NCBI RefSeq assembly: GCF_963921235.1
Contig: NC_086107.1
Coordinates: 98,768,001 to 98,832,000, forward strand
From: Mobula hypostoma
Lineage: Eukaryota
Direction: 5' to 3'
Length of the DNA: 64,000 nucleotides
Below, piece after piece: positions 22,655 through 40,769 of this stretch (the first letter of the stretch is position 1; the number at the start of each line of letters is the position of its first letter). Under the pieces are notes generated by a model. That model was not told the DNA's origin, made no database searches, and saw only the letters and a program-made list of their open reading frames with translations. Made by a program: the position numbers and the translations under genes.

Positions 22655-22738
22655 TACCAACCTGATCCCTGACCCGAGAAGGCAGCACAGTTATTAAAGC
22701 CACTGCCTCAGTAGCACTGACCAGGGTTCAGTTCTGAC

Positions 22739-23631
22739 GATACAACCATTGTTGGTAGAATCTCAGGTGGTGACAAGAGGGCATACAGGAGTGAGATATG
22801 CCAACTAGTGGAATGGTGCCGCAGCAACAACCTGGCACTCAACGTAAGTAAGATAAAAGAGCTGATTGTGGACTTCAGGAAGGGTAAGATGAAGGAACAC
22901 ATACCAATCCTCATAGAGGGATCAGAAGTGGAGAGAGTGAGCAGCTTCAAGTTCCTCGGTGTCAAGATCTCTGAGGATCTAACCTGGTCCCAACATATTG
23001 ATGTAGTCATAAAGAAGGCAAGACAGCGGCTATACTTTAATAGGAGTTTGAAGAGATTTGGCATGTCAACAAATACACTTAAAATCTTCTATAGTTGTAC
23101 CATGGAGAGCATTCTAGCAGGCTGCATCACTGTCTGGTATGGAGGGGCTACTGCACAGGACCGAAAGAAGCTGCAGAGGGTTGTAAATCTAGTCAGCTCC
23201 ATCTTGGGCACTAGCCTACAAAGTACCCAGGGCATCTTTAGGGAGCAATGTCTCAGAAAGGCAGTGTCCATTATTAAGGATCTCCAGCACCCAGGGCATG
23301 CCCTTTTCTCACTGTTACCATCAGGTAGCCTGAAGGCACACACTCAGTGATTCAGGAACAGCTTCTTCCCCTCCGCCAACCGATTCCTAAATGGACTTTG
23401 AAGCTTTGGACACTACCTCACTTTTTTAAATATACAGTATTTCTGTTTTTGCACATTTTTTAATAATCTATTCAAAATATGTAATTGATTTACTTGTTTA
23501 TTTATTATTATGTTTATTTTTTTTTCCTCTCTCTGCTAGATTATGTATTGCATTGAACTGCTGCTGCTAAGTTAACTAATTTCATGTCACAATGCCGGTG
23601 ATAACAAACCTGATTCTGATTCTGACTCTGA
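22739..23631 (+). mobile_element. 5'-truncated Rex1-type LINE inserted into a tRNA-derived SINE
   Basis: ORF 22808-23350 (180 aa, RT C-terminus), (ATTCTG)n tail, TCTGAC on both sides. SINE sequence continues across the insertion (22681-22738 and 23632-23810). Confidence 0.88.
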
Positions 23632-33870: not shown

Positions 33871-35313
33871 TTGACATCCCCCACTGTCTCCTGTTACCAA
33901 AACAATATTGAGTCCAGTTTTTCCACACTTGCTGTTCTAATCTTTAAACCCTTTGGGAACATGTTTGCCCTGATATCTTACCACTTTTAGTTTATAAGAC
34001 CTCCACTTCCCAGATATGAATTTATTGGTATGTAGCTGTTCCCAGTCTTTTTAATATTGAAGTTGATCTTCCCCCCCAAGTCAGTCACTTAACTTTGGAA
34101 CTATCTTTTCCCTTTCTATAACTGCTTTGAAATTTAGAATTTCACTTTAGAATGACACTTTATTCACTTGCCTGACTTTATATTCCCTCAATATTTGGCA
34201 CTGCCCCATCCCTAGTGATACTGTCTATATTCCAGCACTATAAACTCTCTGGATGCATTTCAAAAGTTCTGCCCCCATCTAATCCTTTCACACAAGGATG
34301 GTTCAGGTTATTGGGGAAGTTGAATCAGCTACTGCTGTAACAATAATCTCGTTTTCATCTCTGTGATTTGCCTGCATTTCTGTTCCTCTATCTTCTGACT
34401 ATTGGGAGGCCTGTTGCACAATCCCAGCAAACTGTTCACTCTTTTTATTCTTAAGCTCTACCATGTGGACATATTGGAAGTTCTATCTAAGACGTCCTTC
34501 CTCATTAGCAATGGTATCCTTGATCAGCAATGAACTGTCCTCCCCACGCCCCACTTTGAACTCTGGACTTCGCTACGGCCTGTAGATACAAACGAGTGTT
34601 TGGGTGAGCAGCAAGATAGATTTGCTGACTGCTGCATGGGAACTTAGTTCACAGTCCATGGTTCCAACATGAGTACTTTTCAAATTATGATCAGTTCACT
34701 GAACCCGGCCCTAACCTGGAGATGACCTGGACCCTGGAATGTTGATTTGACTGTCTTTAGGATTCCAGACTTGAAATCATTTTTTCCATAAGGAGTTGAA
34801 AGACTAGAACAGTTTGTTTAAATTTTTTTGAAAGAATTGCAAATCTTTACATTTTTTTTTATAGAGGTCTAAGGCTGGTCTGTTGTTGAATAGTTTTATC
34901 GATAGATTCTTTGTCAGTGGCGGAATTGAGGGGGATGAAAATGGCGCCGGAAGCCACATTAACAGTCGAGCAGGCTTGAAGGACCATATAGCTGATTTTG
35001 TGTCATTAGGTAGTCCAGCTTCTAACCCTAGAGCAGCATCTCAGCTGTCTCTAGAAACTTACAGGCCTTGTGTGTGGTTCCAGGGTAGGATTTGATCCCC
35101 AAACAGAGTAGACCTCCAGATCTTGTAGTCCCAAAGACCATGGCCCTAATCTGCCCTCCTTCAGACTCCAGCCACACCCCCGCACCCCTGCCCCCCGAGT
35201 GTGGCGTGTCCTCTGCCTCCTCTGGATCCAGGCTTCACCTCTCATACAGGCTGTGTGGGCCCTTTGTCGGCTTCAGAAATGTGATCTCTAATCACCGATT
35301 TTTTTTTTAATAG

Positions 35314-35438
35314 ATTTCCACAAAGATCCAAACAGCGAAATGAAAAAGAAGGCAAAATTCAAACCAAGCAAGATGCTGAAGTTTCTTAGCAACAAACCAG
35401 AGGGAAAGTCGAAGAGTGCCAAAGAGAAGAACTTGTGA
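35314..35438 (+). CDS. MICALL1: MICALL1 last coding exon, basic C-terminal tail and TGA stop
   Basis: aatag|AT. Reads FHKDPNSEMKKKAKFKPSKMLKFLSNKPEGKSKSAKEKNL*, with TGA at 35436-35438. Confidence 0.92.
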
Positions 35439-36305
35439 TGGGGAAAGAAGTGCTGTAATGCAGGGAGAACTGCAGGAGTGGCTGGCACAGCTGACCGTGC
35501 TGGGAGCAGTTCTGCTCCACCATGTCTGGTGACTGGCTCATAGGAGTCTCGTACTTGATATCAGGCAGCTCCCTCATGTGCTGACTGAGGTTGCTTATTA
35601 TATATCATTATATGTGCAATAGAAACCTCTACAGTACTCCCTTTATTTTTGCTTAGTGCGGTGTTAGCTTACTGGTTAGATGTTCTGTTCCTTTTGCTAA
35701 AGTTGTCTCATTTCCACCATGTGGTTTTCTGCAAAGTTTCACAGCTGCAGAGTTGAATGCTCGCGTTCGACTTTCCTGGTGCTCATTCACCGAGGGCTTG
35801 TTTTAAGGTCACGCCCGGCTGTCACTCAGGACTGTAGACCAGAAATGTGCCTTTCCAGTGTGAAGACTGGCCCGCTTCCTGCTACGTTGTGCTGCTGTTC
35901 AGCGTGGTGTGTGAACACTCGGCGACCCACTGGTGATTCAGAATTCTGCGCACTGTGGCAGGTTATTTTGTGCCATTTATCTATCATCAACTTAAACTTT
36001 GCAAAGATATTAACGGTATTGCAAGATGCTGTATTGGACCTATAACTCAAACGATAGGCTATAATAGTTCCTCTGCAGCGTTGAGAACAGGATCTGCTAG
36101 CACTTAATAGCATGGTGTGACAGTGCGGTGTGTGGAGTCCAACGTGCAGGCATGGTGTGATCTATTACACTGTCGCGCTTCCTACAAATACTCTGGGGGC
36201 TTTGCTTCGGGTGGAAGTATGTCCAGAGCACTTCTGAGTAGCTTAAGACTGGCTCCCCAATCCTACTCTTCGTCTATCAGTAGATCACTATGCAACAAGA
36301 ACCTT

Positions 36306-37822
36306 CATAGAAACATAGAAAATAGGTGCAGGAGTAGGCCATTCGGCCCTTCGAGCCTGCACCGCCATTTATTATGATCATGGCTGATCATCCAACTCAG
36401 AACCCAGCCTTCCCTCCATACCCCCTGACCCCTGTAGCCACAAGGGCCATATCTAACTTCCTTTTAAACATAGCTAATGAACTGGCCTCAACAGTTTGCT
36501 GTGGCAGAGAATTCCACAGATTCACCACTCTCTGTGTGAAGAAGTTTTTCCTAACCTCGGTCCTAAAAGGCTTCCCCTCTATCCTCAAACTGTGACCCCT
36601 CGTTCTAGACCTCCCCAACATCGGGAACAATCTTCCCGCATCTAGCCTGTCCAATCCCTTTAGGATCTTATACGTTTCAATCAGATCCCCCCTCAATCTT
36701 CTAAATTCCAACGAGTACAAGCCCAGTTCATCCAGTCTTTCTTCATATGAAAGACCTGCCATCCCAGGAATCAATCTGGTGAACCTTCTTTGTACTCCCT
36801 CTATGGCAAAGATGTCTTTCCTCAGATTAGGGGACCAAAACTGCACACAATACTCCAGGTGTGGTCTCACCAAGGCCTTGTACAACTGCAGTAGTACCTC
36901 CCTGCTCCTGTACTCGAATCCTCTCGCTATAAATGCCAGCATACCGTTCGCCTTTTTCACCGCCTGCTGTACCTGCATGCCCACTTTCAATGACTGGTGT
37001 ATAATGACACCCAGGTCTCGTTGCACCTCCCCTTTTCCTAATCGGCCACCATTCAGATAATAATCTGTTTTCCTATTTTTGCCACCAAAGTGGATAACTT
37101 CACATTTATCCACATTAAATTGCATCTGCCATGAGTTTGCCCACTCACCCAGCCTATCCAAGTCACCCTGCATCCTCTTAGCATCCTCCTCACTGCTAAC
37201 ACTGCCACCCAGCTTCGTGTCATCCGCAAACTTGGAGATGCTGCATTTAATTCCCTCATCCAAGTCATTAATATATATTGTAAACAACTGGGGTCCCAGC
37301 ACTGAGCCTTGCGGTACCCCACTAGTCACCGCCTGCCATTCTGAAAAGGTCCCGTTTATTCCCACTCTTTGCTTCCTGTCTGCTAACCAATTCTCCACCC
37401 ACACCAATACCTTACCCCCAATACCGTGTGCTTTAAGTTTGCACACTAATCTCCTGTGTGGGACCTTGTCAAAAGCCTTTTGAAAATCCAAATATACCAC
37501 ATCCACTGGTTCTCCCCTATCCACTCTACTAGTTACATCCTCAAAAAATTCTATGAGATTCGTCAGACATGATTTTCCTTTCACAAATCCATGCTGACTT
37601 TGTCCGATCATTTCACCGCTTTCCAAATGTGCTGTTATCACATCCTTGATAACTGACTCCAGCAGTTTCCCCACCACCGACGTTAGGCTAACTGGCCTAT
37701 AATTCCCCGGTTTCTCTCTCCCTCCTTTTTTAAAACGTGGGGTTACATTAGCCACCCTCCAATCCTCAGGAACTAGTCCAGAATCTAACGAGTTTTGAAA
37801 AATTATCACTAATGCATCCACT
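36306..37822 (-). mobile_element. Young 5'-truncated CR1 LINE with intact ORF2 RT portion
   Basis: ORF 36397-37821, 474 aa uninterrupted: NYRPVSLTS, QHGF, LDFQKAFD, GVPQGSVLGP, KFADD. (TTTCTATG)2 tail. Confidence 0.97.
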
Positions 37823-38189
37823 GAAATTCTTCCAGACAGAACTCACCACATCAGCTTGACTTCCGTCATCTTAAGTACTCTCACTCCGGTGCCACAAGTT
37901 AAGCATTCAACTCTGCCCTGAAGGATGTTGAACGTAGTGATGTAAAGAGTATTCCTGTGCCACTGTGAAACATTGCAACACTTCTTTAAAAACTGGTAGA
38001 ACATGTTCTTGTGACTAAGTGTATGCATAAATACACTCTCATGCTTATTTCTTGAGTGTGTGCACACCACATGGATCCAGTTACTGAGACCAGCTAATAC
38101 AAATGTGCTTCCAAACCTAGTTAATTCATAATGAAGTATGCTTTCAAACATAGTTAAGTCATTTAAGATGGTGGTGAATATTGGCAACT

Positions 38190-38782
38190 TAGGTCGAGGC
38201 GTTTGATCTTGTGGTGTTCGCTGAGCAGATGTTTCATCACCAGTTGAGGTGACGTCCACAGGTCACAGTTGTTGGTGTTTCTCTCCAGGAGTGCTCACGT
38301 TTATATAACCCCCCTCCCCATTCATTTGCTTGCCTCAGTCCTGATTGGCTACCCATTCAGTTGACCTCTGAATTCTACTGGCTCGCGTTTCTTTGGCTCT
38401 TAGGGGTCTATTGACAGTGATCCATTGTCACAGTACAAGAAAGACACCAGTTTAACTGAGACACTGTGGAGGCAAACACGAAGTAGGCACAAGAATTCTT
38501 AGAAGCGTGGTTCTCTTTTGATAACTCCGAAAGCAAACATACAGTATCAAAATAGATACCATCTATGAAACCGCTAAGAGCCGTAGAAACACGAGCCAAT
38601 AGAATTCAATGGTCAACTGAAGGGGTAGCCGATCAGGACCGAGGCAAGTAAACGGGCAGCTATATAAATGCAAGCACTCCCAGAGAGAAACACTAACAAC
38701 TACGCACTGAGGATGTCACCTCGACTGGTGATGAAACATCTGCAAGCTAATCACCAAACTCGACGAACATTGCAACATCAAG
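38190..38782 (+). mobile_element. Penelope-like element remnant with inverted pLTR arms
   Basis: Arms at about 38205-38404 and 38572-38782 are reverse complements. The spacer encodes degenerate HQFN*D...ANTK*AQEFLEAWFS (GIY-YIG C-terminal-like). Confidence 0.8.
38704..38743 (+). ncRNA. Minimal type I hammerhead ribozyme motif (Penelope-type)
   Basis: GCA-CTGAGGA-T-GTCACC-TCGACT-GGTGAT-GAAA-CA-TC-TGC: CUGANGA and GAAA cores, 6-bp stem II, 3-bp stem I. Confidence 0.6.
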
Positions 38783-39999
38783 AGTTAAATCATAATAAAG
38801 TACGCTTTCCAAAGTAGTTAAAAAATCATAGTGAAGTATTGCTATTAATATTGCACTTTAATTGACCAGTGAGGTGTTATGCTTTTTTCAACAGGTCAGT
38901 CACACAAGCTTCACACCAAAATTTAGTCATCTCCATTTGAGTCAGTCTCCAGACAATCTTGAGTGCACTTTGGCCGTGCTCAGCCTACGTTGCAACAGGC
39001 TGCATTGCCAGCCCGTGAGCTCCGTTAGGTGGTGTTCCTAGTTCGGAAAGCCGAAGGGAGTTACCAGTCTGATCCATGTACTTACAGCACTAGCTTATCA
39101 AAGGCGACTTGCAGATAAATGTGTTCCAGCAAGAAACAACTTCAGTTTGGAATTCGTGTATGATCCAGACTTTTCAGGGACTCTTCAATTTGTTTTTGAA
39201 ACTTAATCCTTCAGTAGATTGGATAAGGACAACATATTCTATTAGCCTAAAACTGGACTGACACTTGGCATTCGCACCCCTACCCTGATTAACATAGTGT
39301 GTTGAAGTTCTGTCAACTCTTAGCAATAATTGTATCCCTACCTAACATACAGGAACAGCTGCAAAAAAGCCTTAATCCAATTTATTGTCGAATCTTCAGT
39401 TTAAAGTCTTTATAATACTTATTGTAACTGCATTATTGGTGCCATGTCTTTGTATTAGTCCTTCAATTATGGTATTACTTTCATAAGTTCATTCAGACCA
39501 TCTTGCTGATCCAAATCTTTGACTTTTACTGTATCTTACCTATTTGTATATAATATTTATTGAAACACAAAAGAACTGTTCTAAAGCTATATTATTCTGC
39601 TAACAAAATTGATAAAACTGGGTCTTTTAAAATGGAAGGTCGTCCAAATGTGTGTCTGGTGTGTGCGACAGTTGATTGTGATGGCAAATCCTATCTGCAT
39701 GTTACTCCACGTGTCCTGGGAGCAGTCATTGCCCTACTTTAAGCAATGTATTTCTGATGTCTGGCAGATTGTATTGAGTGGGCTGTCGGAGCCATTGGTT
39801 TACTTCTCAAGCACTAAGATTTGCATCGTCCACAGCTTAAAATTGAATTCCAGTTTGTTGGGATTGAACTCCAAAGCAAAATGTTTCTGCATCTCGTGAA
39901 TGCACGGGGCCCTGAACAGGTTGAGAAGCAAGTGTCTTTCATCTGTTAGTGGATCCAAGTGGTGACATCTATTTCTGTATCATCTTGCACTGCCTAGAG

Positions 40000-40334
40000 C
40001 AGAGGTTCCCAACCTGGGGTCTATGGACCGCTTGGTTAATAGTAGGTATCCATAGCATTAAAAAGGTAAGGAACCCCGGTAGTGTAACTGTAAGTATTTC
40101 CATATTTGATCCAGTCTGAATGGCTTCCATTATCATCCTTCAATGAAAACAGGAAAAACAAACACTGTCATCAACCTGAACTGTAACCAATGACTGCCTG
40201 CTATTGAATCACTCAGCGACAGATATTTCCTTATCTAAGAACTTTATATCTTACTGTACTGAATTTAGAGCAGAGGTTCCCAATCTTCTTATTCCATTAA
40301 CCAAGGAGTCTGTGGATCCCAGGTTGGGATCCCA
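40000..40334. mobile_element. Two hAT/Charlie-type mini-MITEs (about 40000-40078 and 40271-40334)
   Basis: Both start CAGAGGTTCCCAA after a ..TAGAG target and share internal sequence with the other copies. Confidence 0.65.
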
Positions 40335-40769
40335 TCCAGTGCAGGTGGTGTTACACGACCTGCTCTAAAGTAACCACCTGTGACATCCTGCACTGGATCT
40401 GTTCTGACTGCATTTCAGACTGGGCAGCCCTTTCACCATATTCTGAATCCGGTGTGACTATGCTATATGGGGTTACTTATACCTGCAGTGGTATCATTCA
40501 GTGCAGGGTTCAGGCGGGCTGTATCAGCCTGAACTAGTTACATAGATCCGGGGAAGCTTGAACTGCCCCATCACTCTGCACAATGTCTAATGTACTGTAT
40601 ATACATCTGTTAGCCATGTGGCTGCCAGTCTAATCAAACCTACTGGATCTAGTGAGACTCTGCCTACAGATACTTAGCAACCACTCAGTGCACTTGCACC
40701 CGATCGCCTTGCACATGATCAGAAGATACATCACGTGCTTCCCTATTTTCTTTCACTGGACAGTATGAC

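Follow-up and report, generated by a model that had tools for sequence, protein, structure and literature searches.

A Penelope-like element remnant in the MICALL1 3′ untranslated region of Mobula hypostoma: a probable edited RNA hairpin with a relic hammerhead motif

Penelope-like elements (PLEs) carry minimal hammerhead ribozymes (min-HHRs) of type I within their pseudo-long terminal repeats (pLTRs), in which helix II has 6 bp, helix I is short, and a true helix III is lacking (Cervera and De la Pena, 2014, PMC4209133). The element described here lies in a stretch of 64,000 nucleotides of Mobula hypostoma (NC_086107.1, positions 98,768,001 to 98,832,000 of the forward strand), hereafter the window, in whose own numbering all positions are given, and it falls within the 3′ untranslated region (3′UTR) of MICALL1. 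Window 38158–38782 is probably one old insertion of a Poseidon/Penelope-type PLE, whose transcript very probably forms an edited hairpin and whose hammerhead is most likely a relic. The PLE min-HHRs and the present family have in common the helix features named above, an unpaired base separating A9 from 10.1, a palindrome at 15.2–16.2 (ACGU in the family), thousands of dispersed, mostly truncated copies, and pairs on opposite strands 100–700 bp apart (PMC4209133). They differ in the core, which here reads CUGAGGA (G at the free position 7), in the 3-bp helix I, and in the palindrome, which has been lost from the window copy. Moreover, the G10.1-C11.1 pair, called highly conserved in that report, is G10.1·U11.1 in this subfamily.

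The Poseidon element PAc of Anolis carolinensis offers a further comparison. In that element (PMC11167929), the open reading frame (ORF) starts where helix II starts, the cut falls ∼25–26 nt after the ATG, and the 3′ ends lie inside the next ORF unit, all of which resemble the present family. However, PAc is an active full element that was studied in vitro, whereas the window element is a dead 0.6-kb remnant whose 3′ end lies ∼70 nt into the ORF, as against 111–118 nt in PAc. The same report has the PAc protein cleaving and extending both DNA strands, an activity that could give head-to-head copies. PLE insertions typically carry an adjacent inverted 5′-truncated copy and a 30–40-bp tail at one end, according to Craig et al. 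(2021, PMC8557442). The window is similar in having an inverted 5′-truncated copy at the 5′ side and a possible 43-bp extension at one end only; it differs in that both copies are short 3′ ends with no full-length unit between or beside them, and the tail was assigned by eye. A literature search on Penelope elements as a source of A-to-I-edited double-stranded RNA (dsRNA) returned nothing relevant, only an unrelated human review.

Inverted Alu pairs in human 3′UTRs are a known edited dsRNA arising from two independent insertions, and their location in a 3′UTR is shared by the present locus. Unlike such pairs of Alu or other short interspersed nuclear elements, the dsRNA of the window probably stems from one PLE insertion event, and the host is a cartilaginous fish. 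With regard to ribozymes in messages, Martick et al. are said to have found in 2008 a discontinuous hammerhead in mammalian CLEC2 3′UTRs, with full helices, tertiary contacts, and efficient cleavage. Both are sense-strand hammerhead motifs in the 3′UTR of a protein-coding mRNA, but in contrast to the CLEC2 ribozyme, the window motif is a minimal, decayed, dimer-dependent transposon motif that is buried in a duplex. Edited inverted-repeat dsRNA, as characterized in PMC9989829, resembles the window in its nearby inverted repeats within one transcript and its clustered A>G changes. A PLE remnant, a minimal hammerhead, and an edited 3′UTR inverted repeat are all already known kinds.

Structure, identity and origin of the element

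The repeat search revealed two inverted pairs, 38225–38314 with 38654–38743 (90 nt, 82%) and 38325–38407 with 38570–38652 (83 nt, 87%). Alignment with MAFFT of 38190–38410 against the reverse complement of 38565–38790 showed 84% mean column identity, with homology running from ∼38201 to 38782 and two indels, one of 16 bases and one of 9 bases. The reverse-complementary arms of ∼200 bp described in the first-pass annotation were thus found at 38201–38407 and 38570–38782, at ∼84%. The left arm, on the minus strand, is an inverted, 5′-truncated copy of the PLE 3′ end (repeat search, MAFFT, and reverse-orientation family matches), and the right arm, on the plus strand, comprises the end of the endonuclease ORF, the hammerhead-bearing part of the pLTR, and ∼70 bases from the start of the next ORF unit. 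A junction between the inverted and the forward copy occupies 38408–38420, between the ends of homology. The predicted RNA fold of 38190–38795 had a free energy of −312.6 kcal/mol as against −157.1 ± 6.8 for 20 shuffles (z −22.7), with 175 of the 207 left-arm bases paired with the right arm and a longest unbroken helix of 33 bp; the arms are therefore predicted to pair into an RNA hairpin of ∼200 bp.

The spacer had been called GIY-YIG-like. Sequence comparison by tblastn showed that 38421–38569 (plus strand) is the decayed C-terminal tail of a PLE endonuclease ORF, corresponding to residues 74–128 of the family protein P0001 (38421–38540 at E 1.5e-10, with stops, gaps, and a frameshift; 38546–38569 at E 0.23). 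The similarity to the endonuclease ORF covers these last ∼55 residues, but the catalytic GIY/YIG part is absent and the GIY-YIG motif itself does not occur in the spacer. A minus-strand “GIY” (IDGIYFDT, in the ORF 38411–38605) was rejected as a chance word on the wrong strand. Longer copies of the family have an ORF with EFLEAWFSSDNSVNKHIEIDAIYEPL upstream of the unit, and the family ORFs carry ..REHK. The upstream ORF of one such locus (L040, 209 aa) was matched by 22 longer proteins at E ≤ 1e-5, most of them with RVT_1 and HTH_animal domains; one homologue was named as a GIY-YIG domain protein, and P0124 (832 aa, with RVT_1, PF28514, and HTH_animal) aligned with 100% of the query at 46% identity. 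Remnants of reverse transcriptase (RT) motifs (MGSPIS..., YVDDTL) were found upstream in L071, L066, L064, and L070. Neighbours in the ESM Atlas belonged to HTH_animal/GIY-YIG clusters, in which GIY-YIG was present in 12–18% of the members. An RT domain upstream of the endonuclease is accordingly a property of the family, absent from the 5′-truncated window copy. The assignment to Penelope/Poseidon-type PLEs follows from the homologue architecture, the ESM Atlas neighbours, the hammerhead, and the form of the insertion, and the initial description of the locus as an inverted-repeat Penelope remnant is borne out by these and by the family ORFs.

The family is widespread in the 3.48-Gb genome of the species itself. 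A 601-nt query had 1532 candidates, 40 of which were scored and yielded 92 matches; the endonuclease piece gave 29954 first-look candidate sites. Most matches of the 601-nt query covered only window 38436–38781, in forward sense, because the forward copy of the window reaches no farther. Most of the family matches finished at query positions 591–595, i.e., window 38780–38784, which places the common 3′ end of the family near 38781; it was also observed that the 3′ ends of PLE insertions fall ∼70 nt into the family ORF.

The element is flanked by a direct repeat of 39 nt, the left copy at 38119–38157 and the right copy at 38783–38821 (33/39 identical), whose alignment score of 48 compares with a mean of 16.5 and a maximum of 26 in 300 shuffles. 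Either a target-site duplication or a local repeat older than the insertion may account for it. The 43 bases between the left repeat and the left arm (38158–38200, minus strand) partly resemble, by eye, the reverse complement of the 3′ terminal bases of the element and are possibly the 30–40-bp “tail” extension of PLEs; in local alignment the flank repeat did not extend into them.

In the proposed course of integration, a 5′-truncated forward copy (38421–38782) would supply the C-terminal tail of the endonuclease, the pLTR with the minimal hammerhead, and the start of the next ORF, and a shorter inverted copy of the same 3′ end (38201–38407) would abut it at the 5′ side. We infer that this head-to-head form is a normal product of PLE integration in a single event, which, as the arms are only ∼84% alike, would make the insertion an old one. 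Among 29 family loci, seven had a second copy, and in all seven the order was minus-then-plus, i.e., head-to-head with the 3′ ends outward as in the window, although the three top loci came from a head-to-head query and the sample is biased to that extent. The divergence of the arms could also reflect two independent insertions that happen to be adjacent, and chance neighbours do occur in a family of such extreme abundance; the flank repeat, offset by 43 bp on the left and with no counterpart at the other head-to-head loci, points the same way. Nevertheless, none of the two-copy loci was tail-to-tail or direct, and the two copies in the window lie within 13 bp of each other. The arrangement is also that of a typical PLE insertion (PMC8557442), and dual opposite-strand min-HHRs 100–700 bp apart have been described (PMC4209133). 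Two separate insertions are hence considered unlikely, and the single-event origin is retained below.

The MICALL1 transcript and the adenosine-to-guanosine cluster

MICALL1 is encoded on the plus strand; its bMERB exons lie at 26.5, 29.0, and 29.5–29.8 kb, and its top protein matches were named MICAL-like protein 1, from elasmobranchs (sharks, rays). The last coding exon (35312–35438, plus strand) has its acceptor AG at 35312–35313 after a T10 tract and its stop TGA at 35436–35438, as supported by the ORF, the sequence, and the contigs; the PLE insertion lies ∼2.75 kb downstream of this stop. The assembled contigs of four runs were compared with 35200–40400, X1 and X3 being from the species of the window (organism A), and X5 and X19 from the related organisms B and G. 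No evidence was drawn from stretches without contig cover, which are 39724–39897 (all four runs), 40072–40245 (X1 and X19), and the places where contigs break in the right arm. In all four runs, contigs started at 35312 and carried further upstream letters absent from 35200–35311 (e.g., X3 record 16, 3958 nt). They are taken to represent spliced RNA, since they start at the polypyrimidine-AG acceptor and their upstream sequence is not that of the adjacent intron. Single contigs connected 35312–36307 with 37822–38363 (X19 record 9, which has 192 more letters upstream) and with 37822–38228 (X5 record 25), and other contigs spanned 38261–38663 and 38703–39622, covering both arms and beyond. The contigs show that the 3′UTR of the MICALL1 mRNA includes the PLE element, which is transcribed as a part of it. 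The proposed location in this 3′UTR is thereby upheld by spliced contigs leading from the coding exon into the left arm and by others running past the element; instead of ending at a poly(A) site upstream of 38190, the contigs continue to ∼39620.

Transcription of MICALL1 would carry both arms into one RNA, the arms would pair, and ADAR would deaminate adenosines of the left arm, which would be read as G. In the contigs of the same species, seven of the 11 adenosines of 38239–38297 were read as G (38239, 38252, 38258, 38265, 38267, 38287, and 38297; plus strand), all of them A in the reference genome. X1 record 6 (37793–38350, 558 nt with unique flank) showed eight differences in total, seven of which were these left-arm A>G changes within 59 nt. 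X3 record 22 showed six of the seven, position 38239 being G in X1 and A in X3. Elsewhere, X1 and X3 had no difference from the window over 35312–36333 (1022 nt) and one to two over 38703–39622. With gaps of ≤20 nt, the seven sites fall within the cluster rule (at least three sites ≤30 nt apart) given in PMC9989829. Their predicted partners in the right arm are C in three cases (A·C mismatches), A in one, and U in three. Sites 38239, 38252, and 38258 face the hammerhead bases 38729, 38716, and 38710 in the predicted fold, and their read-out as G suggests that the duplex over the ribozyme forms in cells. The cluster is very probably a signature of ADAR hyper-editing, with the hairpin as ADAR substrate: the G read-out is observed directly, and the enzyme is deduced from its pattern. 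The left-arm cluster thus lends support to the suggestion in the first-pass annotation that the hairpin serves ADAR.

Alternatively, the same cluster could reflect a genomic haplotype, gene conversion of one arm by the other, or a contig made chimeric by another copy. The changes at 38265, 38287, and 38297 do bring the left arm to the state of the right arm when reverse-complemented, G also stands at most of the cluster sites in organisms B and G, and alleles can mimic editing in contig comparisons. However, conversion or a paralogue should also bring in the C>T, G>T, and T>G differences nearby (38262, 38263, 38266, 38286, 38296), which were not among the differences of the contig, and a contig with unique flank confines seven of its eight differences to A>G changes within 59 of 558 nt. 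Polymorphism is also at odds with the full identity to the window that these individuals show along 1022 nt elsewhere in this UTR and with the variation of 38239 between samples of one species; that seven out of seven changes should be of one among the twelve substitution types is very unlikely for polymorphism. A genomic or assembly origin of the cluster is accordingly regarded as improbable, and editing of the hairpin remains the preferred explanation. As a separate observation, two X5 contigs switch strand between the arms, with joints at 38329/38674 and 38333/38673, most likely an artefact of assembly or template switching at the inverted repeat.

The contigs of the four runs end at 39619, 39622, 39622, and 39618, and this shared stop (39618–39622, plus strand) hints weakly at where the mRNA ends. 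Neither AATAAA nor ATTAAA was present within 30 nt upstream of ∼39620; GATAAA occurs at 39611–39616. In agreement with what had been noticed at first, a hexamer scan placed the first AATAAA after the stop at 38794 and the sole earlier ATTAAA at 37114, within a CR1-like long interspersed nuclear element (LINE). The AATAAA (38794–38799) is contained in the right copy of the flank repeat and reads AATGAA in X5 and X19 only (38797 A>G); as the related organisms and the left flank repeat both have AATGAA, the AATAAA is a derived change.

The CR1-like LINE itself lies in the 3′UTR at 36308–37821 on the minus strand and has an open RT frame of 481 aa (RVT_1 E 3.9e-34). It is missing from the contigs of organisms B and G, in which 36307 is joined to 37822 with GTCTG between (X5, X19), and therefore represents a young, lineage-specific insertion. 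The word depth summed over this LINE amounts to ∼1e5, i.e., its family is heavily represented in the runs. In an intron of MICALL1, an open frame of 209 aa (22721–23347, plus strand) matched Pfam ALKBH8_N (E 4.5e-8) and resembles a C-terminal LINE ORF, not a host gene.

The hammerhead motif in the window and in its family

A min-HHR descriptor (CUGANGA, optional bulge, helix II of at least 4 bp, GAAA, 0–4 bases, U-H, and helix I of at least 3 bp) gave a single match over the two strands of the window, at 38704–38743 on the plus strand, and gave no match in 100 shuffles or in the reversed sequence. The minimal type I layout, supported by the sequence, the descriptor, the family motif, and the alignment, reads GCA / CUGAGGA / U / GUCACC-UCGACU-GGUGAU / GAA / A-CA-U / C / UGC. 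Helix I is formed by 38704–38706 with 38741–38743 (GCA/UGC, 3 bp), and after the core CUGAGGA (38707–38713) a U (38714) bulges out ahead of helix II, next to A9. Helix II pairs 38715–38720 with 38727–38732 (6 bp) and closes with G·U, not G-C. Thereafter come GAA (38733–38735), A15.1 (38736), C15.2 (38737), A16.2 (38738, ancestrally G), U16.1 (38739), and C17 (38740), all on the plus strand, with the predicted cut between 38740 and 38741. The conserved core is intact (CUGAGGA, GAAA at 38733–38736, and UC at 38739–38740). The layout is therefore as had been annotated from the letters, with the addition of the bulged U38714 and the G·U closing pair. The mirrored left-arm copy, on the minus strand of 38225–38262, reads CUGUGGA with core A6 changed, again as first described. 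The ATG of the family ORF (38713–38715, plus strand) stands at the start of helix II, with the predicted cut 25 nt later; in the window and in L018, L021, and other loci, the start of the PLE family ORF (MSPRLVMKHLQAN...) coincides with the A9/bulge/G10.1 bases of the motif. The hammerhead thus comes after the stop of the endonuclease ORF and overlaps the start of the next one, an arrangement also reported in PMC11167929.

The Rfam search of the whole window returned no family at gathering score, hammerheads included. At E ≤ 10, the search of 38100–38900 gave no hammerhead but three chance-level matches to small nucleolar RNAs, one of which, sR45 (E 0.085), lay over the hammerhead itself. The missing match is not surprising, since the models expect a helix III that the motif does not have.

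At 15.2–16.2 the window copy has ACAU in place of the family-majority ACGU palindrome, giving a C·A opposition. The self-duplex of the 8-mer around the palindrome was computed at −3.1 kcal/mol when intact and at +2.8 kcal/mol for the window copy. Only these 8-mer energies were used, as cofolding of whole 40-nt dimers was uninformative: for the intact and the window sequence alike, the hammerhead-dimer fold (−11 to −13.5 kcal/mol) stood against an alternative minimum free energy structure of ∼−22.8 kcal/mol.

In the genome, the 37-nt family motif was found in 222 + 237 = 459 copies at ≤3 mismatches, 10 of them exact, and a control with the motif written backwards gave 0 + 0. The window motif differs from it only by CG>CA in GAAACGUC, one of the two CpG-decay changes proposed in the first-pass annotation; the same change occurs in seven others among the 62 one-mismatch copies listed. 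For alignment, 46 of 56 motif segments from the fetched loci were combined with the window into 47 rows of related copies from several subfamilies. Helix II was paired in 91.1% of the cells, four of its six pairs were changed on both sides (U-A in 41 copies with G-C in 3; A-U in 31 with U-A in 6), and its covariation score of 0.160 exceeded the shuffle mean of 0.120 and was reached by none of 500 shuffles, slid controls giving ≤0.054. Helix II is GUCACC/GGUGAU in this subfamily and GGCUUC/GGAGCC in another. No covariation was seen in helix I (GCA/UGC) in the same 47 copies. The unpaired base between 9 and 10.1 (alignment column 24) was T in at least 90% of the copies, and the 10.1–11.1 pair was G·U in 38/47, including the window, and G-C in 6/47, mostly from other subfamilies. 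At 15.2–16.2, C-G was found in 14 copies, U-G in 11, and U-A in 3, with 19 unpaired; a C-G count of only 14 out of 47 is as expected from CpG decay.

The strict descriptor matched only one of 20 divergent PLE 3′ regions, and the divergent motifs were located by looser anchors and blastn-short; 12 of the 20 had no alignable motif (L041, L044, L045, L050–L052, L054, L055, L059, and others). What sets the divergent subfamilies apart is helix II; they share the GAAAC(G/A)U box, the bulged U, and GCA/UGC as helix I. One of them (L042, L043, L046, L049, and L058) and another (L047, L048, L055–L057, and L060) could be told apart. One divergent subfamily has GGCUUC/GGAGCC, the canonical CUGAUGA core, and G10.1-C11.1; another has mostly GUCUCC/GGUGAU with a U·U mismatch at the fourth pair. 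Hammerhead-like motifs of other PLE families were seen in the locus flanks (L010, minus strand, ∼1886–1913; L004, 1204–1231, and minus strand, 2725–2759), for example GGUC-CUGAUGA-...-GAAACGUC-GACC with a 4-bp helix I. These differing flank motifs indicate that the genome holds several distinct PLE hammerhead families.

Function of the hairpin and fate of the hammerhead

Several points weigh against reading 38158–38782 as one old, transcribed, and edited PLE insertion. The RNA evidence consists of assembled contigs labelled “RNA? (a guess)”, whose RNA nature is deduced from the splice-site start at 35312; the run listing has 22 rows, every one marked “RNA? (a guess)” or “?” and none recorded as RNA. 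Editing is likewise read from the A>G pattern in contigs. The right arm is A-rich and many sites would be expected in it, but 38758 was the only A>G among the differences listed there, and long contigs break at 38594–38707 (X1) and 38664–38702 (X3), so the right arm is poorly covered. Five of the seven edited adenosines have a 5′ C and one has a 5′ G. Neither C nor G is a 5′ neighbour preferred by ADAR. Family-level support from Pfam stays below the cut-offs, both for GIY-YIG (E 0.021, 15.6 bits as against 22.6, in a decayed ORF piece) and for the RT domain RVT_1 (E 0.0023). As to the hammerhead, the subfamily has G10.1·U11.1, a 3-bp helix I, and no Rfam hammerhead match, so that the motif may be a weak ribozyme even when intact, and the percentage of paired cells is inflated by the omission of 10 of the 56 segments, which were strongly decayed second copies or duplicates. 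With respect to the insertion, the arms are only ∼84% alike, the left flank repeat stands 43 bp from its arm, and a long flank repeat sought at the seven other head-to-head loci was in no case above shuffles, two cases being marginal.

Presence of the element as transcribed sequence in three related organisms, the probable editing of the hairpin, and the read-through of the MICALL1 3′UTR across it would also suit a retained regulatory element of MICALL1, in place of neutral baggage; it might, for example, keep the mRNA in the nucleus, promote its decay through Staufen, or dampen the sensing of dsRNA. However, the three organisms are only ∼1–3% apart in the UTR beside it (11 and 27 of 996 nt differ), and shared presence is therefore expected by descent alone. 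The identity of the arms has fallen to 84% and CpG sites have been lost, as in neutral DNA. A retained regulatory role is accordingly quite improbable.

The first-pass annotation had further proposed a switch, in which a working self-cleavage motif in the MICALL1 3′UTR is hidden by the hairpin and freed by unwinding or editing to cut the message. In its favour, the core CUGAGGA...GAAA...UC of the right arm is intact, the hairpin is borne out and probably edited, inosine at 38738 would stand in for the G that the palindrome has lost, and long contigs break within the right arm (38594–38739). Hyper-editing is also known to weaken duplexes. Against the switch, the broken palindrome leaves 15.2–16.2 as C·A with an unfavourable duplex energy, and a second sense copy for a dimer is lacking, as the mirrored one is antisense with CUGUGGA. 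The bases of the hammerhead are predicted to pair with the left arm at a mean probability of 0.925, and with 459 occurrences of the motif in the genome this copy is not singled out. The contigs continue to ∼39620 with similar word depth on both sides, and their break points vary by run (38703, 38708, 38722, 38739), which is what the assembly of an inverted repeat would give; nothing in them points to cleavage, though the ends of RNAs are not visible in contigs. Of the PLE min-HHRs, monomers did not cleave and dimers cleaved poorly (PMC4209133), and the PLE hammerhead of Anolis cleaves only with the PLE protein and has no RNA-seq ends at its site (PMC11167929). The switch is thus left unsupported and very improbable. 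Hardly credible is the further variant in which ADAR editing loosens the duplex through I·U pairs, conversion of A38738 to inosine restores an ACGU-type palindrome, and edited transcripts are cleaved at 38740/38741 together with a second PLE-bearing RNA, shortening the 3′UTR, as nothing in the data shows it and no change at 38738 was among the contig differences listed.

The hammerhead of the window is most likely a relic that never cleaves here. The CpG>CpA change has destroyed the ACGU palindrome needed for helix III of the dimer, no second sense copy is nearby, the protein of the element is absent from the window copy, and the motif would be locked in a duplex once transcribed, the left arm being transcribed first.

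The locus documents, for a cartilaginous fish, a PLE that supplies a probable ADAR substrate within a host mRNA. A single PLE insertion can make a ready long hairpin, for which the Alu case needs two, because PLEs often insert head-to-head (seven of the 29 loci here, in line with PMC8557442). In PLE-rich genomes, head-to-head PLEs could account for much of the dsRNA that is edited or immunogenic. The probable editing opposite the motif is evidence that, in vivo, a PLE hammerhead within a host mRNA is kept paired and does not adopt its catalytic fold, which fits the published weak activity of PLE motifs.

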